64,000 nucleotides of DNA from assembly GCA_030390025.1 (NCBI GenBank), contig CM059431.1, positions 154,692,001 to 154,756,000 of the forward strand, read 5' to 3'. The position numbers were made by a program, and so were the translations under genes. Below, in pieces: positions 1,383 to 52,459 of this stretch (within the stretch, counting starts at the first letter, position 1; each line of letters opens with the position of its first letter). The DNA is from Squalus acanthias (lineage: Eukaryota). The notes below the pieces were generated by a model. That model saw nothing but the letters and a program-made list of their open reading frames with translations. It made no database searches and was not told the DNA's origin.

Positions 1383-1581
1383 GAAATCAGATCCCGAGTT
1401 GAATGTCACCGCAGAAGCGATGCTTCGCAACTCATGTTCGGTACCGTGCTGGAAAAGGGAGCTCGGGGAGAAAGAACAATGTGGAACATATTGCTTCAAC
1501 TGCAGAACACCAAACCCAAGCTGAAAATGACATTGTCAGAGATACAGAACAGATGTACAGCTGGAAAAAGTGAGCTAGGAG
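1383..1581 (+). CDS. NLR exon B1: C-terminal half of a CARD-like module (EIRSRVECHRRSDASQLMFGTVLEKGARGERTMWNILLQLQNTKPKLKMTLSEIQNR...)
   Basis: Acceptor ttcttgttAG and donor GAG|GTTAGT; 199 nt, phase 0 to 1. Length and splice positions are conserved in three copies. Confidence 0.75.
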
Positions 1582-4500
1582 GTTAGTGGTATCCAAATTT
1601 AATTCTCCGTTAGAATAACAACTTTTTATTTAAGATGAGACCTATTTTTTACTCGTTTATGTGATGTGGGCGTCGCTACCAAGGCCAGCATTTATTACCC
1701 ATCCCTAGTTACCCTTGAGAAGGTGGTGGTTCGCCGCATTCCTGAAACGCTGCAGTCCATGTGTTGAAGGTTCTCCCACCATGCTGTTGGGGAGGCAGTG
1801 CCATGCGACAATGAATGAACGGCGGTATCCTGCCAAGAGAGGATGGTGTGTGTCTTGAAGGGGAACTTGGAAGCGTTCGTGTTCCCAAGCGTCTGATACT
1901 CTTGCCCTTCTACTTGGTAGAGCTCGTGGGTTTCGGAGGTACTCGCGAAGAAGCCTTGACGAGTTCCTGCAGTACATTTTGTAGATGGTCCACTCTGCAG
2001 CCACTGTGTGGCAGTGGGGAAGGGACTGGATGCTACTAATTTATACAGGCTTGTGTGAGTTTTATACTCGATTCCTTGAACGAACTTATAAATTTCGGCT
2101 TGGCAGAGCTCCACTAATCCTATGCAAATTCACCTTTTTTTCCACGGATCCGTGATACCCTCATTAACTGAACTACTTTGATTCCTTAAAGCACATTGAT
2201 CATTTGTGAAAGGCTCCTACTCATCCTCAAATCTCTCGCCTATCTTATCTCTGACGTCGTCTTCACATCCCGTCTTTTGCACTCCAGTCCCTCCTCTCCC
2301 TTGCTGTGCTCTCCATTGTACCAGTTCATCAGCTCCGAACTCCAGACATACAACTCAGCCTCACCGAATGGAACTCAACTCATATGAGCTTCAAACTCTG
2401 TAGTTCTTACTTATTTAAACAACGACCAGACTTAGCCAGGACTGGGTTGTTTCTTTTAACTCCAGCAGAACAGTCAGCGTTAATTCTGAATACAACCTCT
2501 GAAAGGAACCACTAACAGTGTTCACTGCTTGAAATACTCTCGAAAGAACTTCTGTCGCGATAGCCGTTAGTTCAGAGTATTCACTTGTTCCATAGCATTT
2601 ATGTTAATCTGTTCTCATTTACACCTTCACAGAAAATGCAGATAATGAAATATTACCAACGTTGGCGAACTACACGGATTTCCAGCTGCGCAGAGTTATC
2701 GGTTGCTACCGTCAGAGACTAGAACAGTCAATTGAAGAGGTAGTGGAGGCCGTTAGTCAGTCGCTTGTAGATGCAAACATGCTTACTGAAACAAATGTTA
2801 AGGTATGTTTAATCTATGTTAGAATCGTAAAGTTTTAAATGAGTCAAACGATTGACTGTTTATAGTCATAGAATCAGAGAGTCTGGCCCAGAAATTGGAG
2901 TTCGATGGTTGCCGCGGGGTTAAGGCTCCCCCGCGATATCACACTCCGCGCCTACTTTTATAGTTTTGGCCCACACGAACTTCAGTTCCTGGGCCTCTCC
3001 CTGGTGCCGGCGCGCAGTGTGTGCGTGTCCCAGAGGCGCAGCTAATTCGATGCGACCTCTGGGATCACGTGGGCCAGTTAGAACCAATGGCAGCACACCA
3101 TCTTTCATTCATAGTTTTGACAGCAAGAGCTGTCAAAACTATGAATACAACAAGCCCCCAAAAGAACAGCTAAAACTCAATTAAATTTAAAAAAAGCCTT
3201 CACATTAATAAAATAACTATAGTTAAATAAATTAACCACTTTAAAAAAAAATTAAATTTTAAAAAAATTTTTAAATTCTTTGTAAACGTTATAAAAATAA
3301 ACTTACCTTTCTTTATAGTCTCTAAAAAAGATAAAGCTGTTGAATTTTTTTTAAATAATACTTAATTAACTAATTACCTTGTTAAAAGGGGGTCTTACGC
3401 CTGCTTTCTTTATGTGTGAAATATTCAACACTTAACTGCGCTTTCAAATCAGAAAAAAAAACTAAGTGCGCTGCGTGCGCACAACCTGTAGCACGCACCC
3501 GGTTCACTTAGGAAACGCCCCCTTCGCAATACCCGAAGTGCCGGTTTCCCGCGCATGCGCAATGCATGCATCAAACCGGCAATTCGGGACCAAATACGTG
3601 AGAGTACACAGTGCGTACTCACCCGCATTAGGTCTAATTTTCGGGCCATTGAGTTGACAACACGGAAAGAGGCCCTACGGCCCATCGTGTCCGGCGCCGA
3701 ATATCAAGCCCTGTCTATTCTGATCCCATTTTGCAGCACTTGGTCCGTATCCTTGTATGCTTTGGCGTTTCAAGTGCTCATCTAAATGCTTCTTGAAAGT
3801 TGTGAAGGCTCCTGCCTCTACCACCCTTTCAGGCAGTGAGTTCCAGATTCCATCCACCCTCTGGGTGAAAAAGTTTTTCCTCAAATCCCCTCTAAACCTC
3901 CTGCCCCTTTCCTTGAAACTGTGCCCGCTTGTTACTGACCCCTCGACTAAGGGAAAAAGTTCATTTCTACCTACCCTATCTATGTCCCTCATAATTTTGT
4001 GCACCTCCATCAGGTCCCCCCTCAGCCTTCTCTGCTATAAGGAAAACAACCCCAGCCTGTCCAGTCTCTCTTCTTAGCTGTAGCGCTGCTACGCAGGTAA
4101 TATCCTGGTGAATCTCCTCTGCACCCTCTCCAATGCAATCACATCCTTCCTATAGTGTGGCCACCAGAACTGCACACAGCATTCCAGCTGTGGCCTAACT
4201 AGCGTTTTGTACAGATCCATCATAACCTCCCTGCTGTTATATTCTATGCCTTGTCTAACGAAGGCAAGTATCCCATATTTCTTCTTAACCAGCTTATCTA
4301 CCTGTCCTGCTGCATTGAGGGATCTATATACATGCACACGAAGTTCCTTCTGATCCTTTGTAATTCCTAAGGTCCTACCATACATTGTCTATTCCCTTGC
4401 CTTTTCAGTCCTCCCAAAATGCATCACCTCACACTTTTCAGGGTTAAATTCCACTGTTCTGCCCATCTGACCAACCCGTCTATATCGTGATGTAGCCTAA

Positions 4501-7500
4501 GTCTTCCCTCCTCCCTATTTACCATGCCACCAATTTTCGTGTCATCAGCGAACTTACTGATCATACCTCCTACATTCATATCTAAATCATTAATGTACAC
4601 TACAAACAGCAAAGGACCCAGCACCTATCCCTGCGGTACACCACTGGGCACAGGCTTCCAGTCTCAAAAACAACCTTCGACCATCACCCTCTGCCTCCTT
4701 CCACGAAGCCAATTTTGGTTTAAATGTGCCCAGTTGCCCTGGATCCCACGGGCTCTTACCTTCTTGATCAGGCTCCAATGCGGGACTGTTTCAAAGCCTT
4801 ACTGAAGTCCATGTAGCCACATCAACTGCACTACCTTCATCCACACACATAGTCACCCCCTCGAAAATCTAATCAAATTGATCAGACATCATCTCCCCCT
4901 GAATGATCCATGCTGACTATCCTTGATTTTTCCTTGCCTCTTCAAGTGGAGACTAATACTGTTCCTCCGAATTTTTTCCAATAATTTCCATACAACTGAT
5001 GTTAGGCTCACTAGACTATAATTACCTGGTTAATCCCTACTACCCTTCTTGAATAATGGTACTACGTTAGCTGTTCTCGAGTCCTCTGGCACATCTCCTG
5101 TGGCCAGAGAGGTTCTGAAAATTTGTGTCATAGCTCCTGCAATCTCCTCCCTTGCCTCACACAGCAGCCTGTGATACATCTCGTCTGGGCCTGGGGATTT
5201 ATCCACTTCTAAGCCAGCTAAAACCGCTAGTACCTCCTCCATCTAAAAACTAATTTGATAAGTATATCACAATCCCCCTGTCTGATTAATATGACTACAT
5301 CGTCCTTCTCCATAGTGAACACAGATTCAAAACATTCATTTAAAACACCACCTACATCTTCTGGCTCGACACACGGATTGCCTCTTTGGTCCCTAATGGG
5401 CCCTACTCTTTCCCTGGTAATCCTCTTGCCCTTAATATATATATAACACACCTTAGGATTTTCCTTTATTTTGCCCGCCAGTGTTAATTCATGCACCCTC
5501 TTCACTCTGCTAATTTCTTTTTTTCAGTACCCACCTGCTCTTTCTATACTCCTCTAGGGCTTCCACTGTTATTAGACATTTGTATCTGCCAAAATACTTC
5601 CTTTTTTCCGACTCCATTCTCGTATATCCCTTGACATCCACAGTTCCCTTGGCTTGTTGGTCCCACCCTTGACCTTTACGGGAACATGTTGCCGTTGTAC
5701 TCTCTCGATTTCCTTTCTGAAAGAATCCCACTGCTCTGATGTGGATTTTCCTACAAGTAGCTGATCCCAGTCCACTTCGGCCAGATCCTGCATTATCATA
5801 TTAAAATCGGCCTTCCCCCAATTTAGAACATTTATTTCCAGTTATCTTTGTCCTTTTCCATGACTGCCTTAAATCTCACCGAATTATGGACACTATCACC
5901 AAAATGCTCTCCTACTAACAGTTCCACCACTTACCCGGCTACATTTCCTAAAATTAGTTCCAGTATCGCCCCCTCTCTTGTAGGACTTTCTACATGCTTG
6001 CTCAAAAAGCTGTCATGGAAGCAGTTTAAGAATTTCGCGCCCTCTAAGCCTTTCACACTCTCACTATCCCAGTTTATATTGGGGACGTTGAAATCTCCTA
6101 CTATTTGTACCTATTATTTCTACACTTCTCTGAGATTTGCCCACATATCTATTCCTCTATCTCCCCTGACTGTTTGGGGGACTATGGTACACTCCCAGCA
6201 AAGTGCTTGCCCCCTTTTTGTTTTTAAGTTCTACCCATACGGCCTCATTAGAGGAACGTGCTAAGATATCATCCCTCCTTAAAGCAGTAATTGACTCCTT
6301 GATTAATATTGCGACACCCACTCCTCTTTTTCACCCCCCTCTGTCTCGCCTGAAGATTCTATACCCCGGAATATTGAGCTGCCAGTCCTGCCCCTCCATC
6401 AACCATCTCTCTGTGAAAGCAACAACATAATACTCCCATGTGTTCATCAACACATTCAATTCATCTACCTGACTCGCAAGACTACTTGCATTATTGGTTT
6501 GAATCAAAAGAGTAAGACTACTTGCATTTAAATAAATGCCATCTAGCCTTGCCATACTCCATTGTGCCGTTATATAATTGATCTGCCTATCAGGCTGACT
6601 TGCTTTTTCCTCAAAAGTTGGCTGTGCATCACCCCCTATTAACCTTCCACTCCGTATCCCATCCTTATGCCAAGTTATTTTAAAACCCCGCAACATTATT
6701 GCAAATCTCCCCGCAATGATGTTGGTCCCGTTCCGGTTAAAGTGTAACCCGTCCGACTTGTTCAGGCCACACCTTCCCCATAAGCAGACCCAGTGATTCA
6801 GGAAATTAAAGCGCTCCGTCGTGCACCAACCCTTTAGCCACACATTCATCTGCTCTATCCTCCTATTCCTATATTCACTAGCACGTGGCACCGGGAGTAA
6901 TCCAGAGATTACTACCTTTGATGTCATGCTTTTTAAATCTGCTACCTAGCTCCCTAAATTCTTTTTGCAGAACCTCATCCATCTTTCTACCAACGTCGTT
7001 GGTACCAATGTGAACCAGGACCTCTGACAGTTCGCCTTCCCCCATCAGAATGCCCTGCAGACGTTCAGTGACATTCTTGACCCTGGTAACAGGGAGGCAA
7101 CATACCATCCTGGAGTCACGTCTGTGGCCAGAGAAACGTCTGTCTGTTCCCCTAAGGATAGAATCCCCTATCACTATTGCTCTCCCACTCTTTTTCCTCC
7201 CCTCCTGTGCAGCTGATCCACTCGTAGTGCCACCGACTTGCCTCCTGCTGCATTCTCCTGTGAAACCATCTCCCCCATCAGTATCCCAAACGGACCATCT
7301 GTCGGACAGGGAGATGAACCCAGGGGACTTCTGCACTACCTTCCTAGTTATTTTACTATGTCTGATGGTCACCCATTCCCTACCTGCCTGTGCACTCTTT
7401 ACCTGCGGTGTGACCACCTTGTTAAACGTGCTATCCACGAAGATCTCAGCTTCGCGGATTCTCCACAGTGACTCCAGCCGCAGCTCCAGCTCCGAAACGC

Positions 7501-10500
7501 GGATTTCGAGAAGCTGCAGCTGGAGATACTTCATGCACATGTGCTCGCCCTGGGCACCTAATGTGTCCCTGACTTCCAACATAGCTCAGGAGGAGAACTC
7601 CACGCTGTTTTGTCAGAGATTATTCTGTGCAAACCAACGATATAAGCAGTATATTACGCTGTAATATTTTAACTTCAGTAGACAATCTGAAATTAATGTC
7701 CTGTCTCAGTGATTTGAAATACTGTTCTGTGATATCTCTGTTAAATTAATTTTTCATGAATTGTCAATGCATGCATTCATAATAAGAGAACAGTACCTCA
7801 TGGACGAACCGTGCTTTTTTAATAGCTGCCTTCTGTGCCCAAGTATCGTCAGCTGGTTCATCTATGACCTTCCTTCAAAAGGTCAGAGTTGGGGCTAGTC
7901 GCTAATAATTGCACAATGTTTAGTTCCGTTCGCAATTCCTCAGAAAATTAAGCAGTCCATGCCAGCACGCAGCATGACCCGGACAACATCCAGGTTTGGG
8001 GCGATAAGTGACAGGTAATATTTATGCCACGTAAGTTTCAGGTGCTGGCTACATGCAACTAGAGAAAGTCTAACCCATTACCATTGACATTCAATGGCTT
8101 TACCATCGGCGTTCTACCACCATGTGTGTCCCGGTGATCACCACTAAAATCAGCTCTGAGAATTTAAAGCCAAACCTCTTGCAGTTAACGTTATTCCAGT
8201 AGTCAAGCCCCTCGAAATGAGTAATTGAATAAGACAAAACATGCAGCGCAAGCAACACACATCATCATTACAGCCCAATGGACAACCAGGTGCTAAGTCA
8301 AAACTGTTATAATCACATAATTCAAATCTCATGTGAATAACTGACACATACGAACTTAACAGTATGACATTTCCTACGATCACGGCCGAGATGCTCTTCC
8401 CATTCTCCATCAAAACGGCCGAGCCTTTCGAATTGGATTGAGCAATTGCCGGTGGCGCGGACTGAACAATTTCTGCTGAACATATCCAATTGGTTTCTTC
8501 CATTCTACTTCTTGGTAAGTCCCACCCCCACCTCGGCCCAAAACTCAGGGACGTCAACACTCCTAGCATCTCCCGAGGCCACATCCTCTCACTTCAGTAA
8601 TGCCATAATGTCGCATTTCATAAAATAAACCCCAGTCTAATCGATGATGTTTATCTGCTCCCTTTCTCCAATACGTCCTCACTAATGTAACACAAATGTA
8701 AAGAGACATAGTACTGTGAATAAAGCTGGGAGGTTCAAGGTACAGTTTGTCTGAGGGTATGATGTAATGATTTGATCGATGTGGGTTATAAAAGGGCAGG
8801 ATTGGGAGATTAATTGTGCCCTGTTACCTGAAGATCATGTTAACTTAAGTTGTATGCAAATAGGGAGCATTCATTAATAACAGTTTCAGTTGCAGAATTG
8901 GATCTTCAGGAATGATATTATGAATTATTCAATATAGAAATCTCTAAGTTTGGGGTAACACCATCATAACATGACTCTTTGTTATAAGGCGATCGTTTTC
9001 TTACACAAAATAATGGAAAAGTGATGGAAGAAGAGTTATATAGACAAATTGGAGATAATGCAGCAATGACAGTAACAGTGATTGGTGACTGTAAATATTC
9101 AAAGTACAGATGTAATCTAACTGGGGAAAGGAGGCCTTGGTGTTTAAAGCTTGTGTAGGACATTATTCAGCTGGCTACAATTTTGGACGACAGGAAAGGA
9201 TTGAGCATTTCATTCATTTCTAGAAATGGGCAGGGGCTAGTCTGTGAGGTAAAGGTAGTGAAACATCTACCAATGTTATCGTTTATATGTTCATATGTTA
9301 GTATTCATATGAATTATAAAATGTTTCGTTACAATCAAACAATAATTATGTTAAAGGAATAAATCTAATGTCAACGAGGCTGACGTATTAGCTCAGTTAT
9401 ATTGAGGCGGATATTATCAAATAATATCGTGGGTAGGAAATAAGAAGATAGACAATGTAGGATTCCCATACAAGATACAGAAATCACACGGGGAATGAAA
9501 GCAGTGCAGGACAGTCAATAATTACTTGAGCTTGCAGAGATAATGAAATAAACAATAGATTTAAAATTGAATGTACGAGTGTTTGGCTAGTTATATAAAA
9601 CAAATGAAGGAAGCCTGGGTAATATAGTGAACATTTAATCGATGAATCAGTGGCCGGTGACAGAGTTCGAGACAATGATCATATGCCAAAGACACTTCAA
9701 TGAAAAAAGTTAAACAAAGAGAAGAGCTGTGTAGAGATGAAATGGGAATGGTTCATATAGAGGACGTAGGATTCACTGAAAAGCTATTGGTACTGTTTCG
9801 ATGAATTAACGTGATACTTGGAATGAATGAAAAACTCATTGAAGTCAATGGAAATGAAAGTCAGACGAGAGTAAAACTGGGATGCAAATTCGCTTCAGCG
9901 CGTTTGACCCAATTGGCCAACACCGGCCAACACCTTGTGACCAATTTTTATGGGTGTCAACTTGTGCAATCTGAGTTTCTAAAAATCTAACTGTGAGCTT
10001 TGAAAAATATTAAGTTGCTCCACTACCAATAATTATTGGTTTTGATCATATCCTCTATCTGTAACCGTAGCTTTGTGCTTTGATTTTCCACTTTACCCTT
10101 TTCCATCAATCAGTTCCTGGTTATAATGAGAGAAAGACCAGTTGCCCTGGGTGTCTCAAAGCTGCTACTTTCTATCTCAGTAACCTCTTCCAATCCTACA
10201 ACCTGTCAAGATTCAGACGCTGGGCTAATTCTTACCTCTTGTGCATTCCCCTTTTTCCATCGCTCCACCATTAAAGGCCTTGCCTTAAGCGGTTTAGACC
10301 CTAAGCTCCTGAATTCCCTCCCCAAACCACTATGAATCTCTAACTCTCTCTTCTCTTAGACTCTCTTTAAATCTACTCTCTGACCAAGCTTTGGTCACCT
10401 GTCCTAATATCTTCCTCTGATGCTTGGTGTTACATTTTGTTTGATAACACTCCCTTTGCCACGCTTTGGGACGTTTTACTACGCTAGTTGTTGTTGTTTC

Positions 10501-13500: not shown

Positions 13501-16500
13501 CGCTCTGGAGCTTCCTGGTCTCCTCCTCTGAGCCCACCCCACCTCCTAGTTTAGTGTCGTCTGCAAATTTGGAAATGCTGCATCCGACTCCCTGATCCAG
13601 GTCATTAATGTAAATTGTGAACAGCTGGGGACCCAGGACAGATCCCTGTGGTACCCAACTTGTTACTGCCTGCCATTCAGAAAATGAGCCGTTTATTCCA
13701 ACTCTCTGTTTTCTATCTGACAGCCAGTGCTCTATCCACGTCAATACTTTCCCCTTTATCCCATGAGCTTCAATTTTCCCTGCTAATCTTTTATGTGGGA
13801 CCTTATCGAAGGCCTTTTGGAAGTCCAGGTACACCACATCTACTGGCTCTCCCCCATCTATTTTACCAGTTACTCCCTCAAAAAATTCCAATAGATTAGT
13901 CAAGCACGATTTACCCTTTGTAAATCCATGTTGACTCTGTCCTATCCTGTCCCCATTTGCTAAGTGCTCCGCTATTTCATCCTTAATGATGGACTCCAGC
14001 ATTTTGCCCACAACTGATGTAAGGCTTACAGGTCTGTAATTACCTGCTTTTTCCCTACCCCCCTTTTTGAATAGTGGGGTAACGTTAGCTACCCTCCAAT
14101 CCATGGGCACTGTTCCCGAGTCTAATGAATTCTGAAAAATCATACTTAGTGCATGCGCTATCTCTAGGGCCACCTCCTTCAGCACCCTAGGATGCATGTT
14201 ATCAGGCCCTGGGGATTTGTCCGCCTTCAATCCCTTTAGCTTCCTTAACACCATATCCTTAGAGATATTGACTTGCGTCAGTTCCTCCTTTGCAAATGTC
14301 CCTATTTTTCCCGATATCCCAGGGAGGTTTTTTGTGTCTTCCTTCGTAAAGACTGACCCAAAGTATGCATTTAGTTGGTCTGCCATTTCTTTATTTCCCG
14401 TTATATATTCCCCCGTATCTGAATGCAATGGGCCAACTTTGGTTTTCACCAGTCTTTTCCTCTTGATATACTTATAAAAGCTTTTGGAGTTAGTTTTTAT
14501 ATTTTCCGCCAGCTTGCTTTCGTAAGCTATTTTGCCCCTCTTGATTAAGCCCTTTGTCCTCCTTTGCTCTATCTTAAACTGTTCCCAATCTTCCGCTCTG
14601 GTGCTTTTTTGGGCTATTTTATACGCCCTATCTTTGGATTTTATGCTGTCTCTAATTTCCCCTGTTATCCACGGTTGAGTCACCTTTTTAGATTTCCTTT
14701 TATGCCAGATTGGTATAAACAATTTTTGCAATTTTGTCATTCTATCTTTAAATGCTTCCCATTGTTTATCTACCTCCAGTCCTCCCAGGAACGTTGTCCA
14801 ATCAGACCTACTCAGTTCCCGTCTAATGGCATCATAATTCCCCTTGTTTAAATTCAGGACCTTAGTCTCTGAGTCAATTTCTTCGCTCTCCATTTCGAGT
14901 GAGAAATCGATCATGTTATGATCGCTCTGACCCAAGGGTCCCCGTACAACAAGATTACTAATTAGTCCCTTCTCATTGCACAGTACCCAGTCCAATATAG
15001 CCTGTTCCCGAGTTGGTTCCTCGACATATTGATCCAGATAACCATCCCTTAAACACTCAAGGAACTCCTCCTCCTCATTATTTTTACTGATTAGGCTATT
15101 CCAATCTATATGTAAGTTAAAGTCACCTATGATGACAGCTGTGCTCTTATTGCACGCTTCTCTAATTTCCCTCGTGATGCCCTCCCCAACCTCTATTTTA
15201 CTATTTGGAGGCCTATATACCACTCCTATTAATGTTTTTCGCCCCTCGCTATTTCTTAGCTCCACCCATATAGATTCTGTATTAACTGAGTTAATATACT
15301 TCCTTTCAATTGCATTTATCCCTTCTTTTACCAGCAATGCTACCCCTCCTCCCTTTCTTTTTTGTCGATCCTTCCTAAATACTGAATACCCCTGTATGTT
15401 AAGCTCCCAGCCCTGCTCACCCTGCAACCATGTTTCCGTAATCCCAATTAGATCATAATTATTAACCTCTATTTCCACAGCTAATTCATCTACCTTGTTC
15501 CTGATGCTTCTCGCATTAAGGTATAAAACCCTCAGGCTTTTTTTATGCTCACATTTTTTATGAATTGGTTTGGCCCTTTGTTTTTTGTTCCTCACCCTTT
15601 TACCATTTATTTCTGTCTGCCTTTCACTTTCCTCTATTTCACTACATAGGTTTCTAGCCCCCTGCCATACTAGTTTAAATGCTCCCGAACTGCTTTATCA
15701 AAAATTACCCCGAGAACATCAGTTCCATCTTTGCACAGGTGTAGACCGTCCCTTTTGTATAGGTCACACCTACCACAAAACTGATGGGTAGTACCAGGTA
15801 CTGGCTACCTACAGCTAGAGAAAGCCTAACCAATTGTCGTTGACATTCAATGGCTTTACCATCGGATTTCTACCACCATGAGTATCCCGGCATCACCAGT
15901 AAAACGAGCTCTGAGATTTCACTGCCAAAATGTTTGCAGTTAACGTAATTCCAGTTGCCAAGCCCCTCGAAATGTGTAATTGAATAAGACACAATGTGCA
16001 GCCTCAGCATCATTTATCCTCATTACAGCCCCAATGGACAACCTGGAGATAGATCAAAACTGTAATAACCACATAAATCAAATCGCATGTGAATAAGTTA
16101 ACTGACACATACGAACTTAACAGTATGAATTTCCCTACGATCACGGCCGAGATTTTGCGCCCATTCTTCATCAAAACGGCCGAGAATTTCCAATTGGATT
16201 GAGCCATTGCCGGTGGTGCGGATTTAAACAATTTCTGCTGAACATGTCCAATTCGTTTCTTCTATTCTACTTCTTGCTAAGTCCCGACCCTACATTGCTC
16301 CAATGCTCAGGGACATCAACAAACCCGTCCTCGACCGAGTCCACATCCTCTCAACTCATGAATGCCATAATATCCCATTTCTTAAAGAAATCTAGACTAA
16401 TCTATGATGTTTATCTGCTCCCTTTCTCCAATAGCTCCTCACTTATGTCACACACATGTAATGAAACACAATACTGTGAATAAAGCTTGTGAGTTCAATG

Positions 16501-19301
16501 AACAGTTTGTCTGAGGGTATGACATAATGATTTGATCAATGTGGCTTATATAAGGGCAGGATTGGCAAATGAAGTGCCCTGTTATCAGCAGATCATGGTA
16601 ACTTCAGTTTAATGCAAATAGGGAGCAGTCATTAATAACAGATTCATTTGACGTATTGGAACTTCAGGACTGATATAAGAAATGATTCAAAATAGAAATC
16701 TATAAGTTTGGGGTAACACAATAATAATGGAACATTTTGTTTATAAGGCGTTCGTTATCTTACACCATACAGTGGAAAAGGGATAGAGGAAGAGTTATAT
16801 AGACAACTTGGAGGAAATGCAGCAATAACAATAACGGTGATTGGTGACTTTAAGTATCCCAAAAACAGAAGTAACATAAGTGGGGAAGGGAGGCCAGGCA
16901 TCTGAAGCTTTACCTGGACATTATTCAAGTAGGTACCATTTTATGACAATAAGAAAGGATTGAGCATTTGATCCATTTCTAAAAATTGACAGCGGCTACT
17001 CAGTGAGCTAAGTCTAGTGAAACATTCACCAATTATATCGTTAGTATTCATATGAATTAGAAGATGTTTCGTTAAAATCAAAACAATAAATTTGTTACAG
17101 GAAAATATCTAATTTCAACGAGGCTAACATATTAGCTCAGTTATATTGAGGCAGATATGATCAGATAATATGGTGGTGAGGCAATATAAAGATAGCCAGT
17201 AGAAGTTTTACGTACAAGATACACAGAGCACAAGTGAATGAAAGGAATGCAGCCCAAACTAGAATTACTTGGGCGTGCATAGAAAATGAAATAAAGAGCA
17301 GATTTTACAATTGAATGTAGGATTGTAGGGCTAGTTATATAAAACAAATGAAGAACGCCTTGGTAATATAATGAATATATAATGGATGAATGAGTGGCCG
17401 GTGACAGAGTTCAGATAATGATCACATTCCGTTTAAACTGCAAAGAAAATATTTACACAAATAACAGAGCTGCTTAGAGATGAAAAAGGAATGGTTCATA
17501 TAGATGACGATGGATTAACTGAAAACTATTAGTACCGTTTCGATGAATGAAGGTTAAACTTGGAATGAGTGAAAAACTCATTGAAGTAAATTGTAAAGAA
17601 AGTTATACGCGAGTAAAACGGGCCGCCGATTCGCTTCAGAGCGTTTGACCCAGCTGGCCAACACTGGCCAACACCTTGTGACCCATTATTTATGGTTGCC
17701 AACTTGTGCAATCTGAGTTTTACAAACCAAGCTGTGAGCTTTCAAAACGATTATTGCCCTTAACAAAGAATAATTATTGGTTTTGATCGTATCCTATACC
17801 TGTAATCTTAAGTTTGTGATTTTATTTAGCAATTTACCCTTTTCCATCAATCAGTTGCTGGTTATAATGAAAGAAAGTCCAGTCGCCCTGGGTGTCTCAA
17901 AGCTGTTCCTTTCTATCTTTATAACCTCTTCGGATCCTACAACCTGTCGAGATCCAGGCGCTGGTCCAGTTCTGGCATCTTGTGCATCCCCCATTTTCAT
18001 CGTTGCACCATTGGTGGCCTTGCCTTCAGCGGATTAGTCCCTCAGCTCTGGTATTCTCTCCCGAAACTACTATGAATCTCTAGCTCTCTCTTCTCTAAGA
18101 CTCACTTTAAATCTACTCTGTGACCAAGCTTTGGTCACCTGTCCTAATATCATCCTCTGATGCTTTATGTTACATTTTGTTTGATGACACTCCCTTTGCA
18201 AGGGTTGGGACGTTTTACTACGCTAGTTTTTGTTGTATCTAATTAATTCTCATTGCAGGCACGCCTCCTGTCTGACTAATGGCGTATTTTCCTTTTATTC
18301 GCTTATGGGATCTGGGCGTCGTTGGCAAGGACAGCAATTCTTGATCATTCCTTAATTGTTTTCTGCATCAACTCCCGATTCTGAGCTTTTCAACACTCTC
18401 CTAAGGAAAGCTAGAAATAGAAAAGACGTTTCTTATCAGAGTTTGTACATTAATTCTTTATATATGATTGCAATATACATTCTTGTTAGAAAATCAGATC
18501 CCTAGCTGAATGTCACCTCAGAAGCGATGCATCCCAACTAATTTTCGATCACGTGCTGGAAAAGGGAGCCCCTGGAGAAAGGCAAATGTGGACCATATTG
18601 CTTCAACTGCAGAACACCAAACCCAAGCTGAAAATGACTTTGTCAGAGATACAGAATAGATGTACAGAGGGAGAAAGTGATCTCGAAGGTTGGTGGTATC
18701 CAATCTAAGTTTTATTCGTTTCTGATATGTGAGCGTCGCTGCAATTGGGGGAGGAGATAGCAGAAGAGCTTGCCATAAGTTTCCAATCTTCGCTAGATTC
18801 GGGGGAGGTGCCTGAGGATTGGAAAGTGGCAAATGTGACACCATTGTTCAAGAAAGGGTGTAAGGACAATCCTGGTATCTACAGGCCGGTCAGTTTAAGA
18901 TAAGTGGTGGGTTCAGTTTTAGAAACAATAAACAAGGAAAAAATTAACGGTCACTTGGGGAGATTTAAGCTAATTAAGGTGAACCAGCACTGATTTATAA
19001 AAGGCAGATCATGTATGACTAATCTAATTGATTTTTTTGTTGAAGTAACAGGGAGGATTGATGAAGGGAATGCAAAAAATGTAGTCTACATTAATTTGTG
19101 GAAGGCTTTTGAAAAGGTGTCACATAATGGACTGGTTAACAAAATTGTTCCTCATAGATTAGGTTGGTCAGTGGCAGCTTGGACAAGGATTTGGCTTAAG
19201 GACAGAAAACTGCGATTTGTAGTAAATGGCTGTTTTTCAGACTGTAGGATGGTAGACAGTGGTATTTCCCAAGGTTTCAGTGCTGGGGCCACTGCATGTT
19301 T

Positions 19302-19347
<46 letters not shown>

Positions 19348-22300
19348 GACGTGCATATTGGAATACAGAGTAGAATTTCTAAATTTGCCGAATACACCAA
19401 ACTTGGCGTGAGGCAAACAATTAGGATGATGCCAATCGACTGCAACATGAGATAGTTAGGCTAGCAGAATGGGCAGAGAAGTGGCAGATGGAATTTAATA
19501 CAGAGAATTGTGAGGTGATGCATTTTGTTAGAAGGAAGAGGGAGAGGCAATATCCAATTAATAACACTGTTTTAAAGAGTGTGCAGGACAGGGAGCTGGG
19601 AGGTAATGCACATAGGTCCCTGAAGTTGGCAGGAGATATTGAGAGATTGGTTCGCAAAGCATATGGGATCTTGGGGCTTCATAAATAGAGGTACTGAGTA
19701 CAAAAGTAGAGAAGTTATACTGAACCTTTATAAAGCGCTGGTTAGGCCACAACTGGAGTATTGCGTCCAGACGCCGTCACCACACTTTAGGAAGGACATG
19801 AAGGTCCTTCAAGGGGTACAGAGGACATTTGCAACAATGGTTCCGGGTACGGAGAATCTTAGGTACAAGGACAGGTTGGAGAAGTTGGATTTGTTTTCAT
19901 GAGAGCAAAGGAGGTTGAGGGGTGATTTAATAGATGTGTGTAAGATCATGACGGGTTTGGATAGGCTAGACGAGGAAAGGAATCTCTCACTAGTTGAAGG
20001 TACAAGTACAAGGGGACACAAATATAATGTTTTAGGCAAGATATACAGGGGGTGGGGGTGTGAGTAAAAACATTTTTACGCAGCGAATGGTGAGGACCTG
20101 AAACTCGCTGTCGATGAAGTGGTGGAAGCGGACACGCTCATTGTTTTCAAGGGGAGACTGGATAGGTACTTCAGGCAAATAAACTTGCAGTGTTACGGGG
20201 ATAGAGCGGGGGAATGGACTGACTCGATTGCTCTACAGAGAGCCGGCACTGACTCGATGGGCCGAATGGCCTCCTTCTGTGCCGTTATGACTCTGACTCT
20301 GTGACATAAAATACCAGTAATTTACCAAGATTTACTTTTGCAATTGATTTTGAAGTTTTAAAATCTTCATTACAAGAAGTTCAAAATCCAACAGCAAACA
20401 CCCCACAAACCTGAAACTTGCTTCATGAACTATTTTTCTGTTACTTCAGAAATTCTATCAGTTTTTTTATATCAATGAGTGTCTAGGCATTAAACTGTAG
20501 AAAGTAAATACGGGATTACTCATTGCTGAGAAACTTTTCGCATTTTTTAAATTTCCTTGACGATAGGTTTCTCCTTCATAACACTGATCTGTTAAATATT
20601 TTTCTCCTTATTACAATGACTACACCAATGACGTTGTTCGTATTCAAGAGATAGAATTAAAGCACAAAGACACTCTCCGCAAACAGAATGAGAAAATAAC
20701 AGTCAAAACCACTGTAGGAAAAGAAAGATCTCGAAGATGTTTTCTGGATGAAAAGTATGCTGATGTAACGATTGTTGCTTCCCTGCGTGAGCGGAGACTG
20801 GTAGAAAATGAACTGAAAGCCCGAGGTAGAGAGCGTGAAGAATTACAGAGGAAAAACATCGAGAATGAGCTGGAAGAGATTCAGCTGGATCAGTTGCTGA
20901 GTTTCGCTAAAACAGGCAATTCTGGGACAACCGTGGTAATTGGGTCCTCGGGGATTGGGAAAAGCACCATGATACAGAAGATAATCCGGGATTGGGCCGC
21001 AGGGAAAATATACAAACAGTTTAAAGTTGTCTTTCCTTTTAAGGTTCGACAATTGAATTTAATAAATGGAAAAACATGTCTAAATAGCCTGATCCTGGAT
21101 TCCTACCCTGATTTCGAAAATGAGTTGAAACTTGTGTGGAAAGAACCCGGAAACATATTATTTATATTTGATGATTTAGACCAATTTGAACCAACCATTG
21201 ATTTCACCGATATTCCGAGAAACAACGACCCCCAATATCAGTGTTTCGATCCCGAGGGCTGCAATGAAGTGTCAGACATCGTGCGCTGCCTCATACAGGG
21301 ACATTTACTGAAAGGCTGTTCAGTGCTGATCACAAGCCGACCGTGGAAACTGGAGTCTCTGGGAAAGGCAAATATAATTCCAACGGTCGAAGTTCTGGGT
21401 TTCAAATCTGAGAAAATAAAACAATACTTCGACCGTTATTTTGGAGATGGCCATTTTTCCACAGATGTAATCAAGTACATTGAGCAGAATGAGACATTGT
21501 ACACCATGTGCTATAACCCTCTGTACTGCTCGGTCCTCGCTTCATTATTAGAGTCACACCGGACAGAAGGAGCGCAGGAGAGAGCATTGTCCGTCACAAC
21601 CAGCACAAAGGTATTCTCCGCTTACGTCACAAGACTTCTAGAGAGATGCGGCTGTGACGCGGAAACTTCTTGCGACATGTGGCTGAAATTGGGCGAGTTA
21701 GCGTACCAGGGAGTTTGCAACAAAACCGTTTTGATTATGACAGACCAGTTCAATCGCCACATAATCGAACATTCCAATCTTATCTGTGCGCTTATGATGG
21801 AGATTCCAGACAAAGACATGTGTACTGTTGTCTACACATTCACTCACTCCGTTATCCAGGACTTTGTCGCTGCTCTTGCGAAAAGTCGAAGTACAGCAGG
21901 AAATGGACTGACACGATTGCTCGATAACGGATACACGTGCGCTGACGACAGATTTAGGACATTTTCACGGTTTCTCGTTGGTCTCTCCTCACGGCATTCA
22001 ACTGATCAGCTTGAGCGGAAATTAGGTACATTTCCTTCTGAAGCAATCCCTTGTGTGTCGGATTGGCTGAAAAAAAATGTCGAAAAACGCGTTACAAACT
22101 TAGAAGATGGGCAAACCCAAAGGACCTTCTTAAAGATATTGGATTATTTCCGTGAATTCGGAGATACAAACCTTAAGATGGCCGCGTTAACACCGATTAA
22201 AAAGGCCATTTTCACACAATGTCGTCTCAAACCTTTTGACTGTGCGATTATTTCAACCACGTTAGTGGCCGTTGAACTCGTAGAAGAGCTGAATCTGGAC

Positions 22301-24755
22301 ACTTGCCGGGTTGAAGATGAAGGGATCCGTCAGCTGGAGCCCATGCTGCACAAATGTAAAATACTCAGGTATTGCGCAGAAATAGTTACATCAACTCTTT
22401 CACTGGCATGTGTGATATTATTATTTCAGTGAAAAGCAAAAACACATTATACATTCGATCAGTTAATGAGCACATTCACGCATTCGCCTCTATATTGTGC
22501 TCAATGGAACGGTAAGAGACGGCGCCGTTGTGTCTGTTCCGGAAATACCTGTAAGTGCTGGAATGCTCATTTAAATAGATCGGTTTGGGTGTTGACAACA
22601 TCAAATTCGATTTTAACGCACTCTTTGTACCACATGAGAATCTGGATTAATCAGTGCAATATACTCCCCTCACCTTGACCATCATATATTACATCTCTGT
22701 TGGGAATTAAACACAATTTCATAGAACTTTATAGAACAAATGGAGGCCATTCGGGCCATCGTGGACATGCCGGGTCTTCCAAACAGTTTTCTAATTAGTC
22801 ACACTTCCCTGCTCTGTCCCCATAGCCCTGCAATTAGATACCCTTCAAGTATTTAACCAATTCCCTTTCGAAAGTAACTATTGAATCTGCTTCCACTAGC
22901 CAGTCAGGCAGTACATACTAAACCATAACAACTCGCTGCATCAAGCAAATTCTCCTCATCTCACCTCTATTTTTTTGCCGTTTAACTTAAAATTGTGTCC
23001 TCCATTAACTGATCATCTTGCCATAGGCACCTTGTCATTAAGAAAAAAATTGGCTTTGTGTTAAACAATTACAATAAATGTTAAAGAAAACTGTTTTATT
23101 TGGCAGTTTGATTAAATTACAAGTGAGTTATTACCGTCCTGTCAGAAAGTTCCCAATTCCTCGATCATACCGATTTGCCGACTCAATAGCTTGTTGTTGA
23201 GCTCAATTATGCCAAGTGAGACAGTAAGATGTGGGTTCGCTTCTGCGAATCCTAAAACTCTGAGTACACTTCCCAGCGGCACAGTTACGTTAAGGCATCA
23301 TGAGAGGCAGAGAGGAAAGGAATATGCAACAGAATATCACTCCACCTGTTATTAGGCATATTAGATTGATGTGTTATAATTCCCCTCAGTAGATTGTCCA
23401 ATAAACTTCTCAGTTAATTCTTCTTGTTTTGGCATGAAGTGCATTTTTAACCTCAGTGCATTAAAAAGATACTTCTCCTACAATAGAGACAAGGTCGGGG
23501 GTACGGTCCCTATATTTACCTCAAATTTATTCTTTTAATAAAGAGAAGCACCCCTGAGAGATATTTGTACTGGATTCCTCTTCGTTACAGACCACCCATT
23601 TACAGCATTTAATCTGTCAACTACTCAGTAACTACATTACATGTAACAGTTTTATAACGTGTGGTTAAATTTTGACCTCCGACATTAAAGTAACTTCCGG
23701 GTTACTGCTTTTACCACATATGATATTTGCAATTAACTTAATGAAAATCACAGAATAGCATTTAAGTTACGGGTCTTATATTAGAGTTTTTATGGTCCAA
23801 CGTGTCCCACGTTAAATATATCACTTAATTGACAACATTTCCTGTCTGCCGCATTAATCCATATTCATTAATCATGTTGTTTATTTGTTTTTAGACTCAA
23901 TGAGAATAAACTGGGAGATTCGGGAGTGAAACGGCTTTCTGCAGTTCTACAGAAAAATGATTGTAAAATACAGAGACTGGAGTGAGTAATTTTGAAAAAA
24001 ATTCGTACAGCACCACGAGAGATATAATTATGTATAAAAATACGATTTACATTGTTAATGATAACCAGTCGATCTCACTGTTCAATTTACTTTAAAACGG
24101 AAGTAATTTAGAAAGGGTTCAGTATGCATATATCATGAACAGGATTACCCCCAGCCCACCTTCATTTTGGAATTCCAAAGTAATTCTTTGCATTTGGCAA
24201 AAAATTAACGTGTGTGTGTGTTTTGTATAATCTGTGTTTATGTTTCGATCTCTGAAGGTTAAAATCTAATGCTCTCACAGATGAGTGTGTGCAAAGTCTG
24301 GTCTCTGCTCTCCGTATAAACGCTTCACTGATGGAACTGGATCTGAGTAACGATAATCAGGATGGTGAACAGTCCAACATATTGACTGACAATTCTGTTC
24401 TGTTATTGCGCAGTCTCATACAGAGCAGCGATACTCTCAAGGAAATCAGGTGATTTTTTTCCTGGTTAACTATTAATTATTTAAATGTTCTTTCACGTGT
24501 AAAATATATTTTCATATTTTTACTTTAATAAATGGACTTGTAATAGAAAATACATCGTCATTATTTTGCGGCGAATGTATATCCTCCATACGATTAAACA
24601 CAAATATTTTGAATGAATCTCACAATATCGCTACTCATAGTGAACAGAGTAAAACTTATTGATAACAATTGTCTTTATTTTAATATTTTTACAGATTGAT
24701 ACGCAATCAGCACATTGCAGAAGAAAAGCAAATTCTGACGTCAATCAATGTATAG
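1383..24755 (+). CDS. Spliced NLR gene (tandem CARD-like modules + FISNA-like/NACHT + short LRR), 5'-partial, 9 exons, 998 aa within the window
   Basis: Exons of 199+170+199+170+199+1720+87+192+61 nt total 2997 nt. All have AG/GT boundaries and compatible phases, there is no internal stop, and the frame ends at TAG 24753-24755. NACHT motifs: GSSGIGKST, LFIFDDLDQ, LITSRP, CYNPLYC, FTHSVIQDFVAA. Confidence 0.85.
1645..2030 (-). mobile_element. 3' fragment of a non-LTR retrotransposon (RTE/RTE-X-like); paralogous copy at ~11015-11410
   Basis: ORF 1705..2004 ends LPNSMVGEPSTHGLQRFRNAANHHLLKGN, a LINE C-terminus. Family assignment is from recall. Confidence 0.55.
2633..2802 (+). CDS. NLR exon A1: N-terminal half of a CARD-like module (ENADNEILPTLANYTDFQLRRVIGCYRQRLEQSIEEVVEAVSQSLVDANMLTETNVK)
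   Basis: Acceptor ccttcacAG and donor AAG|GTATGT; 170 nt, phase 1 to 0, open frame. Resembles, from recall, the helical N-terminal repeats of elasmobranch NACHT-LRR proteins. Confidence 0.78.
2862..7604 (-). mobile_element. Near full-length decayed CR1 LINE (SGNH-esterase ORF1 plus APE/RT ORF2 fragments), intronic and antisense to the NLR
   Basis: ORF1 motifs VIGDSIL, HIGTND, DGLHFN; ORF2 motifs KFADDTK, KSPGPD, NFFTQRV. Absent at the matching site in unit 2; ctgttt occurs on both flanks. Confidence 0.92.
2885..3647 (+). mobile_element. MITE (non-autonomous DNA transposon), ~760 bp, GGCC-ended TIRs
   Basis: Ends GGCCCAGAAATT...AATTTTCGGGCC, with GC-rich arms and an AT-rich core; co-linear with 29020..29779. 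Inserted in the CR1 3' tail. Confidence 0.85.
10751..10949 (+). CDS. NLR exon B2 (paralog of B1)
   Basis: ttcttgttAG acceptor, AAG|GTTAGT donor, 199 nt open: EIRNLAECHRRSDASQLIFDSVLEKGARGERTMWNILLQLQNTKPKLKMTLSEMQNRNTEGESDLE. Confidence 0.78.
12010..12179 (+). CDS. NLR exon A2 (paralog of A1)
   Basis: ccttcaaAG acceptor (AAG rather than CAG), AAG|GTATGT donor, 170 nt open; overlaps ORF 12039..12233. Confidence 0.72.
12631..15788 (-). mobile_element. Young 5'-truncated CR1 LINE (end of ORF1, complete ORF2, 3'UTR, (TATGTATC)n tail) in an NLR intron
   Basis: Absent from the matching position in unit 1 (~8020); tail repeats at 12631-12650. Confidence 0.95.
12728..15595 (-). CDS. CR1 ORF2, APE endonuclease + reverse transcriptase, 955 aa, uninterrupted
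   Basis: Motifs YLNARS, GITETW, GDFN, SDHN (APE) and YLDFQKAFDKVPH, VPQGSVLGP, FADD (RT). Confidence 0.95.
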   Translation of the reverse strand: MRNKKQRAKPIHKKCEHKKSLRVLYLNARSIRNKVDELAVEIEVNNYDLIGITETWLQGEQGWELNIQGYSVFRKDRQKRKGGGVALLVKEGINAIERKYINSVNTESIWVELRNSEGRKTLIGVVYRPPNSKIEVGEGITREIREACNKSTAVIIGDFNLHIDWNSLISKNNEEEEFLECLRDGYLDQYVEEPTREQAILDWVLCNEKGLISNLVVRGPLGQSDHNMIDFSLEMESEEIDSETKVLNLNKGNYDAIRRELSRSDWTTFLGGLEVDKQWEAFKDRMTKLQKLFIPIWHKRKSKKVTQPWITGEIRDSIKSKDRAYKIAQKSTRAEDWEQFKIEQRRTKGLIKRGKIAYESKLAENIKTNSKSFYKYIKRKRLVKTKVGPLHSDTGEYITGNKEMADQLNAYFGSVFTKEDTKNLPGISGKIGTFAKEELTQVNISKDMVLRKLKGLKADKSPGPDNMHPRVLKEVALEIAHALSMIFQNSLDSGTVPMDWRVANVTPLFKKGGREKAGNYRPVSLTSVVGKMLESIIKDEIAEHLANGDRIGQSQHGFTKGKSCLTNLLEFFEGVTGKIDGGEPVDVVYLDFQKAFDKVPHKRLAGKIEAHGIKGKVLTWIEHWLSDRKQRVGINGSFSEWQAVTSWVPQGSVLGPQLFTIYINDLDQGVGCSISKFADDTKLGGGVGSEEETRKLQSDLDRLGDWADKWQMHYNVDKCEVIHLGCRNGRANYYLNGNKLGEGEVQRDLGVLVHQSLKASMQVQQAVKKANGMLAFIAKGLEYRNRDTLLQLYRALVRPHLEYCVQFWSPHLRKDVLAMEGVQRRFTRLIPGMAGLTYEERLCSLGMYTLEFRRLRGDLIEVYKILTGLDRLDAEGKFPLAGENRTRGHNLRIRAKPFRTEMRGNFFTQRVVNLWNSLPQRAVYASSLNIFKRELDIFLQAKGVKGYGEKAGTGY
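18490..18688 (+). CDS. NLR exon B3 (paralog of B1/B2), the last module exon before NACHT
   Basis: tcttgttAG acceptor, AAG|GTTGGT donor, 199 nt open: KIRSLAECHLRSDASQLIFDHVLEKGAPGERQMWTILLQLQNTKPKLKMTLSEIQNRCTEGESDLE. Confidence 0.78.
18750..20303 (+). mobile_element. Decayed 5'-truncated CR1 (RT region and 3' end)
   Basis: ORF fragments 19015..19455, 19639..19902 and 20119..20304 carry RT motifs; gactct-repeat tail. Confidence 0.9.
19304..19344. repeat. (TA)n microsatellite inside the CR1
   Basis: About 20 perfect TA units. Confidence 0.98.
20649..22368 (+). CDS. Large NLR exon: FISNA-like region + NACHT NTPase + helical domains + first LRR
   Basis: Contains most of ORF 20894..22432. The frame stays open upstream to the acceptor tattcaAG (EIELKHKDTLRKQNEK...LDEKYADVTIV...). 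Walker A GSSGIGKS; donor CAG|GTATTG after HKCKILR. Confidence 0.92.
22720..23020 (-). mobile_element. Short CR1 3' fragment in an NLR intron
   Basis: Resembles other CR1 3' ends in the window (catagaac..., ggaggccattc, ttccctgctctgtccccatagccc). Confidence 0.65.
23895..23981 (+). CDS. NLR LRR exon (87 nt: LNENKLGDSGVKRLSAVLQKNDCKIQRLE)
   Basis: tttttAG acceptor, GA|GTGAGT donor, phase 2-2; typical ribonuclease-inhibitor-type LRR. Confidence 0.88.
24258..24449 (+). CDS. NLR LRR exon (192 nt: LKSNALTDECVQSLVSALRINASLMELDLSNDNQDGEQSNILTDNSVLLLRSLIQSSDTLKEIR)
   Basis: tctctgaAG acceptor, CAG|GTGATT donor, phase 2-2, two LRR units. Confidence 0.85.
24695..24755 (+). CDS. NLR terminal coding exon (LIRNQHIAEEKQILTSINV*)
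   Basis: ttttacAG acceptor; phase 2 completes the LRR motif; TAG stop; ATTAAA motifs downstream near 24771 and 24892. Confidence 0.7.
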
Positions 24756-42900: not shown

Positions 42901-44420
42901 CCAACAGAGTTCCAGTAGTCCAGGCTACACTTTCCCTCTAACGTCCCATTAGCCCGGAGAAATCTGGCAATCTTTATATGACAGGTTAGTCTGACACTAT
43001 TTATGCACAAAATTACGGGGTACATGGACACTCCTCCGTCTCAATGTCCCAAGGTAATCTGGCCCATGACAGCCAATACCTCTTACAACCACTACAGGTC
43101 CAATAGCTCAAGGGCAATCTCCCCATCTGCGTAGCAGAGCGTACAGTCAGCCTCTACAGGCCCAATAGTCTTAGATTATTCTGACGCTCTGCATGCGCAA
43201 TAGCTCAGGCTAAACTAGCCCGCTGCAGACCCAATATCCTCATTACTCTAACCTTTTTCATAGCCCAGTGTCCTCTGACCATCTGCCGGCCCAATTTCTC
43301 AGGGTTTCTGACAAGCTCCGGGCCAATTGCTAAGAGACATTGATCCTCTCTATTGCCAAAGCTGCTCTAACCGTCTACAGGCCCAATAGCCCAGAGTATC
43401 CAATCCCCTATATAGCCGATTGTAATCTGACCATACACAGTCCCAATAACCCAGGTTACACAGAAACTCTTCAGTCCAAATCGCCCAAGAGAATCTGACA
43501 TCAGGCCCAATAGCCCAGGGTAATCTGTGCCTTTATATACCCCGGTAAACTCTTGTGCTTTAAGACCCAATAACCCTGGGTACGCTGACAGACCTAATAG
43601 TCCAGGGTACTGTACCGCTCTATCGGCGATATATCACAGCGTATGCTGACCACGTACACGCCCAATAGCCTGGCGTGTGCTGATCCTCTACAGGCCCATT
43701 TACTCAGGGAACACTGACCCTCGACATAGCCCAGAGTAATCTGACACGACATAGACCAGGAGACTCAAAACATCTACATACACAATAGCCCGTAGCCCAA
43801 AGTACTCTAGCCCTCTACAGGCACAATAAATCAGCGTACTGTGGTCCTTTGCGCATTCCAAGTTACTTGAATCCTCAAAATAGCCCGTATTCGCTGTCAC
43901 TCTAAAGACCCTATATAGCTCATGATATTCTGACCCTCTGTAGGTCCAATAGTGCAGGTTACTCTGAACCTATGCATAGCCCAAGGTAATCTTACCATTT
44001 CCAGGATAATTAGCCCACGGTACGCTAAACCTCTTTACAACCAAGGGTACTCTGAACATCGACAGGCCCAGTAGCTCAGGGTACTTTGAGCCTCTGCAGG
44101 CCGAGTAGCCCAGGGTACTCTCAGGTTCTGTGCATCCCCAGTTACTTTGACCTTCCGCAGGCCCAATATTGCAGAACGTCTGATTCTCCAAGTAGCCTAA
44201 GGTACTTTGACCTTTTGAAGGCCGAGTAGCCCAAGGTACTCTGAACTTCTGCCTAGCCCAGGATACTCTGACCCTCTACAGGCCCAATAGCCCAGGGTCC
44301 TCTGATCCTCTGCTTAGCTCAGTATTCTCTGAAACTCCAGAAGATCAACAGCCCAGGATACTATGACCCGCTGCTTACCTTAGGATACTGTGAACCTCGA
44401 CAGATCCAATAGCCGAAGGC
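39940..44420. repeat. Degenerate satellite/minisatellite with mixed 27-nt and 34-nt units (TAGCCCAGGGTACTCTGACCCTCT-GCA / -ACAGGCCCAA)
   Basis: Runs of 27-mers at ~41490-41550 and ~42000-42215; a 34-mer at 44254-44287. No long ORF. Confidence 0.93.
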
Positions 44421-52100: not shown

Positions 52101-52350
52101 GACCAGAAACTTAACTGGACCAACCACAAAATACTGTGGCTACAAGAGCAGGTCTGAGGTTGGGTATTCTGGGGTACTGGCTCACATTCTGATTCCCCAA
52201 ATACTTTACATTAGCTACAAGGCACAAGTCGGGATGTGATGGAATAATCCCCACTTTCTTGGATGAATGTAGCTCCAACAACACTCGAGAAGGTCGACAC
52301 CATCCATTACAATGCAGCCCGCTTGATTGGCACCCCTTCCACCACCTTAA
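49120..52350 (+). mobile_element. Mosaic of decayed RTE-type and L2-type LINE fragments
   Basis: L2-like RT remnant at ~49500-49930 ([12 protein letters not shown], decayed YADDTQL). Endonuclease/RT-like remnants in ORFs 50198..50518, 50582..50785 and 52048..52239. Confidence 0.6.
50777..51884 (+). mobile_element. Composite GGCC-MITE (outer copy with a related deleted copy ending at 51758 inside it)
   Basis: Outer ends GGGCCTTGAATTT...ATTTCAGGCCC; the inner segment matches 55249..55894 in reverse. Confidence 0.7.
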
Positions 52351-52459
52351 CCAGTCAGCTCTGCTCAGAGACAGGCCCCAGTTTTATCCAGTGACCCCAG
52401 GGCAGTCGATCGGCTCGTTATCAGAACTGAACAGACCTTCCTCACTTTTCCTTGCACCA

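Follow-up and report, generated by a model that had tools for sequence, protein, structure and literature searches.

A shark NLR gene with seventeen intact exon cassettes for a predicted CARD ahead of its NACHT domain

Background

How many CARDs can a single NLR chain carry, and what would a long row of them do? Mammalian NOD1 has one CARD and NOD2 has two; familiar receptors carry one or two, and death-fold signalling is thought to depend on clustering, with the one or two CARDs of each receptor being brought together by oligomerisation to seed a filament. The question is raised by an NLR gene in a 64,000-nt stretch of the Squalus acanthias genome (C7:154,692,001-154,756,000, here called the window; genome size 3.7 Gb), for which a preliminary description had reported five small exons of a tandemly repeated CARD-like module ahead of a NACHT exon. 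These five exons were found to be the end of an array of 17 intact modules, each of which is predicted to fold as a CARD.

Results

In the window and the 340 kb of DNA upstream of it, 17 A exons and 17 B exons alternate strictly over 137 kb (C7:154,573,320-154,710,688), and all 34 have kept their length, an open frame and usable splice sites. Exon B is 199 nt long and runs from phase 0 to phase 1, exon A is 170 nt long and runs from phase 1 to phase 0, and a pair makes 369 nt, or 123 residues, with both the A+B and the B+A order being frame-neutral. Joined computationally, the 17 modules, the NACHT exon and the LRR exons form 2,776 codons without a stop; if they are all spliced together, the product would be a single protein with many more CARDs than familiar receptors have. 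The module exons inside the window are B15, A16, B16, A17 and B17 of these 17 complete pairs; the earlier minimum of three modules was true but too low, and the partner that had been placed upstream of the window for the first B exon was located as the exon A of module 15, 1.9 kb beyond the window edge. A 22-kb intron separates modules 2 and 3, and the gene may start between them, in which case 15 modules would be counted.

The repeat unit measures 4,589 nt, in agreement with the tandem unit of about 4.6 kb described before, and 7 of the 16 distances between successive B exons lie at 4.1-4.6 kb, with longer ones making up the rest. The copies in the window, however, are interrupted by insertions of 4.7 kb and 3.2 kb (2863-7604 and 12632-15788), which account for the long B-to-B distances of 9,368 and 7,739 nt there. 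Modules 11-13 and 14-16 represent a later block duplication of three modules (18.5 kb, 94% identity); modules 3-17 share 75-95% protein identity (median 84%), modules 1-2 are older, and the module tree is star-like. The array and its block duplication support the proposed growth by duplication of exon pairs, and from the block duplication together with the module tree we infer that the array is likely to have expanded through unequal crossing-over.

All nine exons of the preliminary description were re-found in the window, on the plus strand, open, with AG/GT ends and compatible phases, and in frame into the NACHT exon. B15 (1383-1581; 199 nt, open, AG/GT) encodes the C-terminal half of the CARD-like module and its linker, and A16 (2633-2802) the extra N-terminal helix and the first half of the CARD, with a further in-frame AG 9 nt inside. 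B16 (10751-10949), whose donor at 10949 is the joint seen in the spliced contig of a paralogue described below, and A17 (12010-12179), open and intact, are followed by B17 (18490-18688), the final module exon before the NACHT exon (20649-22368; 1,720 nt), which it joins in phase; the register of this junction is the same in the Mustelus model P0004. The NACHT acceptor at 20649 is the sole phase-keeping AG between 20480 and 20700 upstream of a conserved ELKHK stretch, and all 4 copies compared have retained it. An acceptor at 20567 was rejected, having stops in all frames and not being conserved. The gene is completed by two LRR exons (87 nt at 23895-23981 and 192 nt at 24258-24449) and by the last coding exon (24695-24755), which ends at the TAG at 24755. 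The second LRR exon has 37 matches in the genome (36 long, 1 partial), spread over a cluster of about 6 Mb that includes the window.

Every A exon is built with two in-frame acceptor AGs 9 nt apart; one of them has been lost in 4 of 25 copies, and both in none of the 25. These paired acceptors (e.g., at 2633 and 12010) could yield a three-residue linker variant per module. The idea that A13 had been killed by a lost acceptor was dropped, as the second in-frame AG is present and the spliced contig uses that position. As for the two insertions in the window, the 4.7-kb one holds decayed pieces of long interspersed nuclear elements (LINEs), and the 3.2-kb one is a LINE on the minus strand with an open frame of 988 codons (12728-15694). 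The latter is probably very recent or polymorphic, since it is missing from a second, 99% identical copy of the gene.

The A and B halves from the window align gap-free to a domain that is present once in most shark NLRs. For the fold, a Mustelus homologue of this domain, 37-48% identical to the window halves without gaps, was modelled with AlphaFold from a 29-row alignment; the model has seven helices and a predicted local distance difference test score of 87. In a structural search (VIA) against 48,161 representative chains, its best matches were the CARDs of SP100 (Z 11.9, root-mean-square deviation 2.0 over 96 residues) and ARC (Z 11.1), followed by NOD1 and caspase-1 (both Z 10.9); with ASC and NLRC4 this set spans Z 11.9-10.4, at deviations of 1.7-3.3 over 80-101 residues. 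The top ranks overall lie at Z 9-12, the CARDs of NOD2 and RIG-I/MDA5 are also among the matches, and one de novo protein stands at rank 12. Other death folds scored lower (best death domain Z 8.3, death effector domain 7.0, pyrin domain (PYD) 6.6), so that a CARD is placed far above the PYD that an NLRP would be expected to carry. Foldseek returned no match at E ≤ 0.001, yet CARDs rank first there too. Each module is thus predicted to form a six-helix CARD-type fold with an extra N-terminal helix, joined to its neighbours by flexible linkers, as the preliminary description had suggested for the fold. In a multi-module model of a catshark relative, which was based on a 16-row alignment, the modules are well folded and the linkers are of low confidence.

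At the sequence level the domain is mostly missed. Pfam CARD matched 6 of the 29 alignment rows at E ≤ 0.1; of six proteins searched, the five-module catshark model P0005 passed the Pfam cutoff, P0019 fell short by 0.2 bit and four had no match. The separate half-exons of the window gave no CARD match in Pfam, nor did exon B by itself match any protein in a word-based search. The best PDB sequence match of the module was the caspase-1 CARD, at a weak E of 0.19. Single-exon Pfam matches to herpesvirus, coronavirus and annexin families were below cutoff and were rejected.

The NACHT exon scored 113 bits against PF05729 (cutoff 26.7), 29.8 against PF17779 (cutoff 23.1) and 30.6 against PF17776 (just under the cutoff of 33.1). 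As expected of an NLR, it encodes a NACHT with winged helix and HD2, and the motifs Walker A (GSSGIGKST), sensor 1 (LITSRP, with TSR) and the winged-helix histidine (FTHSVIQDFVA) are intact; Walker B and a first LRR unit are also encoded. The Walker B, LFIFDDLDQ, has an Apaf-1-like second acid and has lost the distal E, and thereby departs from the modified or extended form hhhhD[GAS]hDE that the majority of NLRs have. This form is not needed for membership in the NLRs, as NAIP and NALP11 deviate too. All 8 database members of the subfamily defined below have two adjacent acids, the other 27 proteins with the motif have DG, and 7 of 42 had no match to the motif. In the portion of the source available, most NLRs are described as carrying the DG-type modified Walker B, from which the Apaf-1-like form differs (PMC2323615). 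After comparison with the Walker B forms covered in that portion (PMC2323615), the idea that this Walker B is dead for hydrolysis was dropped.

The best solved-structure match of the NACHT exon is human/mouse NLRP3 (E 1.6e-41), ahead of PDB entry 5irm (E 1.4e-21), which we take to be NOD2, the file itself saying uncharacterized. By these PDB matches (the tree had no NOD1/2) NLRP3 is nearer than NOD1 or NOD2, so that the earlier comparison with NOD1 and NOD2 is usable as an analogy but not as a statement of kinship. Shark and ray proteins resemble the NACHT exon most, with up to 51% identity. The two short LRR exons gave no Pfam match on their own; two strict LRR motifs were found by pattern, and the stretch is homologous to the LRR regions of relatives, the first LRR exon having its counterpart in P0004, P0013 and P0019. 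The LRR end is short, as had been claimed, in the window gene as well as in related shark and ray proteins across the whole subfamily.

In a quick tree, the gene falls in a clade of 10 of the 35 rows, made up of shark and ray sequences, with a Shimodaira-Hasegawa-like approximate likelihood ratio test (SH-aLRT) value of 100; the Rhincodon model P0035 falls in the neighbouring clade. By NACHT clade, short LRR tail and DD Walker B, the gene belongs to an unnamed subfamily of short-LRR elasmobranch NLRs. Two members, from Mustelus asterias (XP_078087540.1, P0004; 3 modules) and Scyliorhinus torazame (XP_072354261.1, P0005; 5 modules), share with it the module, the register of the NACHT junction, the short LRR and the Walker B type, have 48-50% NACHT identity to it and group with it in one clade (SH-aLRT 100, quick tree). 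They differ in having 3-5 modules rather than 17 and in a predicted membrane helix that is present in both and whose exon was not found in the window gene. Both are automatic models, under names that make no mention of a CARD repeat.

Database protein searches covered proteins up to 2,000 and 2,860 residues. A near-complete module is present in 147 of the 187 proteins collected (128 with one, 16 with two, 2 with three and 1 with five), such that 19 of the 147 have a repeat of 2-5 modules; two of these entries are one catshark gene, and one two-module entry resembles two fused NLRs. The comparison across species called for by the preliminary description thus gives 1-5 modules in database relatives. 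The elephant-shark NLR model P0010 carries the second half of the module; a preprint, in the part seen, reports no CARD-containing NLR among 98 in elephant shark (bioRxiv 10.64898/2026.07.03.736391). In the bichir and reedfish models P0048, P0050, P0052 and P0053, immunoglobulin domains are paired with NACHT.

Among the 150 of 433 candidate B-exon matches that were scored, groups of about 1 to 9 occur elsewhere in the genomic cluster. An array of nine modules forms a separate clade, and module amplification, judged from these sequences, therefore occurred more than once. Close paralogues with 94% NACHT identity differ in having 17 versus 8 modules, and many NACHT exons of the cluster carry stops, as in rapid birth and death. 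In several subfamily members a membrane helix is predicted to precede the CARD, and membrane exons occur in paralogues of the cluster; a profile of six such exons found none in C7:154.40-154.76 Mb, and the window gene may have a more distant or divergent one.

Other arrangements were also observed in the cluster. At C7:158.83-158.90 Mb, on the minus strand, nine intact modules lead into a membrane-helix exon that contains a stop, there is no NACHT within 25 kb, and a twin array at 159.17-159.24 Mb has 2 of 13 exons damaged. At C7:155.74-155.79 and 156.62-156.67 Mb, the order is membrane-type exon, module, membrane-type exon, module, NACHT, and the membrane exons of these two loci have common flanks and strongly different middles. 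Ahead of some NLRs, at C7:155.43-155.44 and 155.86-155.87 Mb, there are degenerate exons of a module-like and a spacer kind (D and E types) in tandem pairs.

Selection was assessed on modules 3-17, i.e., 15 A and 15 B exons. No internal gap was found in these exons, versus 5, 13, 17 and 24 in the 300-nt flanks, and the 157 distinct substitutions include no stop, versus 8.6 expected at random (P ~1e-4). Given the absence of indels and stops, the reading frame of the array is under selection. As an internal control, module exons adjoining broken NACHT exons are damaged in 5/9, 1/8 and 1/4 cases, while the 8-module paralogue, whose NACHT is open, has all 16 module exons intact. Amino-acid constraint is clear in this paralogue (ratio of nonsynonymous to synonymous substitution rates (dN/dS) 0.45; P 0.0002) and in the 9-module array (dN/dS 0.64; P 0.016). 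Constraint is stronger at 27 conserved hydrophobic columns than at the rest, the ratio being 0.27 versus 0.49 in the paralogue and 0.55 versus 0.78 in the window gene.

Contigs of three same-species runs from one study, presumed to be RNA, were also searched; no RNA data set was listed for the NACHT exon. A 383-nt contig present in 2 of the 3 runs reads B-A-B without introns, leaves B exactly at the joint corresponding to 10949 and enters A at the inner AG, and it differs from the window exons by 12-18 bases per piece. As this contig matches no module of the window gene, the splice is assigned to a paralogue: some paralogue splices tandem modules consecutively, which is not evidence for this gene. 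A 1.2-kb contig of similar depth, found in two runs, carries repeated E-type upstream exons.

A second copy of the gene, lying 0.9 Mb away, is 99% identical to it in the last 13 B exons. This copy has an assembly gap at its start, mirrors a stretch of at least 180 kb, and represents the other haplotype or else a young duplicate. Two candidates for a 5' part of the window gene were rejected: a hydrophobic stretch after the upstream exon B0, considered as a membrane exon, resembles a T-rich intron, and a possible first exon, similar to the beginning of P0078, lacks both a Met and a donor. In the remainder of the window, decayed NACHT fragments occur on both strands at 52350-53523, including an inverted piece at 52654-52836, degenerate 27-bp minisatellite arrays lie at 40100-44400, and the segments 58634-59178 and 63452-64000 form a 550-bp direct repeat with 84% identity. 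An Rfam search of the window gave no match.

Discussion

The reading that we favour, tentatively and with a probability of roughly 0.42, is that of a shark NLR in which 17 intact predicted-CARD cassettes, placed before NACHT and a short LRR tail, work as a multivalent CARD scaffold. A frame-neutral two-exon cassette would have been multiplied by unequal crossing-over, and upon activation NACHT would self-associate, such that the many CARDs on one or a few molecules could reach the local density that is needed to seed the filament of a partner CARD, possibly that of caspase-1, ASC or a RIP2-like kinase. By analogy with NOD1/2-RIP2, as treated in the part of the source seen (PMC13249360), many CARDs would lower the amount of NACHT clustering needed for seeding, and module copy number would tune the signalling threshold. 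The seeding of filaments by multiplied CARDs is the accepted scheme for NOD1/2-RIP2 in the same portion of that source (PMC13249360), and a preprint reports, in its accessible part, that cartilaginous fish have a CARD caspase-1 and that ASC and NLRC4 were found in one shark (bioRxiv 10.64898/2026.07.03.736391). The repeats would presumably act as the effector end of the receptor, as first suggested. It appears improbable that the 17 serial CARDs of one chain go further and form several helical turns, and thus a whole filament seed, that would nucleate caspase-1 or adaptor filaments with little assembly of a NACHT wheel, with the threshold set by the number of cassettes per gene, allele and possibly splice form.

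A number of observations weigh against the scaffold and are given here together with the alternatives. Amino-acid constraint in modules 3-17 is weak (dN/dS 0.74), with a borderline deficit of amino-acid changes (P 0.05) and a contrast between core and surface that is not significant (P 0.10), and intact frames would also be expected if any lesion merely removes NACHT. An array that is simply tolerated would behave in this way: frame-neutral copies would be gained cheaply, the frame would be kept since lesions remove NACHT, and the sole CARDs to count would be those closest to one end. The dN/dS value, the star-like module tree with its recent block duplication, the difference of 17 versus 8 modules between close paralogues and the rapid birth and death in the cluster, with its many stopped NACHT exons, all favour this alternative, which we nevertheless consider rather unlikely, as residue constraint is clear in both the 8-module paralogue and the 9-module array, arrays arose more than once, and 34 exons over 137 kb make a big damage target to maintain without benefit. 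For a scaffold, weak residue constraint would be expected because most copies would be redundant. The catshark multi-module model, moreover, shows no confident packing between modules (predicted template modelling score 0.48), and 17 exposed CARDs behind about four LRR units should be hard to silence, which would favour an inhibitory or inert role. Another alternative, which we regard as the most doubtful of the explanations considered, is a decoy or sink, in which the array would absorb the CARDs of caspase-1 or an adaptor and damp the inflammasome, or would serve as pathogen bait with NACHT reporting damage. The short LRR tail of the subfamily does leave little classical sensing surface, arrays that lack NACHT and end in a membrane helix and a stop exist in the same cluster, the modules diverge (median identity 84%), and CARD-only inhibitors are known; on the other hand, NACHT has kept its nucleotide-binding and oligomerisation motifs, and dN/dS below 1 gives no overall positive selection.

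Other points concern whether the full chain is made at all. Among the pieces and joints listed from the three runs, none lies on the coding exons of this gene at high identity; the 383-nt contig matches no fetched module, none of this gene's among them, and its exact pattern gave 0 matches, so that transcripts joining A/B exons to the NACHT exon, as the preliminary description would require, were not found and only the B-A-B splice of a paralogue was seen. The region ahead of module 1 contains decayed exons: an E exon that has a stop and no longer has its acceptor, an A-like exon that has diverged, and B0. Relative to two paralogues, B0 lacks one base and is thereby out of phase with module 1, and a homology search upstream of module 1 found no start exon. 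In the 99% identical copy, 3 of 25 exons are broken by two stops and one frameshift, and the last exon of the window gene stops 9 codons short of the position seen in the paralogue at C7:155.52 Mb. This evidence, along with the frame-neutrality of both the A+B and B+A pairings, would fit a gene whose full chain is rarely or never made, whether A+B or B+A cassettes are skipped to give short mixed isoforms or the gene is a recent pseudogene, without its original 5' end and with exons that decay has yet to reach. We hold this to be unlikely. The dead E acceptor is common to three paralogues including this gene; being shared with two paralogues it predates the split, yet the array is intact, and the upstream E, A-like and B0 exons may for this reason be skipped relics. 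A start exon can also escape a homology search: in 25 of the 147 database proteins, no more than 10 residues separate the Met from the beginning of the module, and the exon that truly starts the gene may code for just a few residues and be too small for detection. Finally, the single spliced contig joins consecutive B-A-B exons, with none skipped.

With regard to known systems, the family has been described as a shark-expanded group of NLRP-related NLRs, proposed to be inflammasome activators and to evolve by birth and death; typical members of it carry one copy of the module here, and the portion of the paper's text at hand describes no N-terminal domain or repeats (Tan et al. 2021, PMC8455134). 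Its multi-module models are found in databases without a name of their own. NLRP3 is the nearest NACHT structure but has a single pyrin domain, a long LRR and, in the part of the source seen, a DG Walker B (PMC2323615) as opposed to the DD found here. NOD2 and RIG-I/MDA5 likewise have tandem CARDs per chain that seed the filament of a partner CARD, according to the sections of the source available (PMC13249360), but they carry two CARDs and not 17, NOD2 is of another NACHT lineage, and RIG-I is without NACHT. A literature search, mainly of open-access main texts, found no NLR with more than two CARDs and no repeated CARDs in shark NLRs; the "four CARD domains" mentioned in PMC2858798 are, from the part of the text seen, four separate proteins.

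Shark NLRs that have been automatically labelled as PYD-containing carry a CARD-type domain that is mostly missed by profile searches, and its presence bears on how cartilaginous fish activate caspase-1. A natural set of close paralogues with from 1 to 17 CARDs per chain would allow a direct test of how valency relates to threshold.

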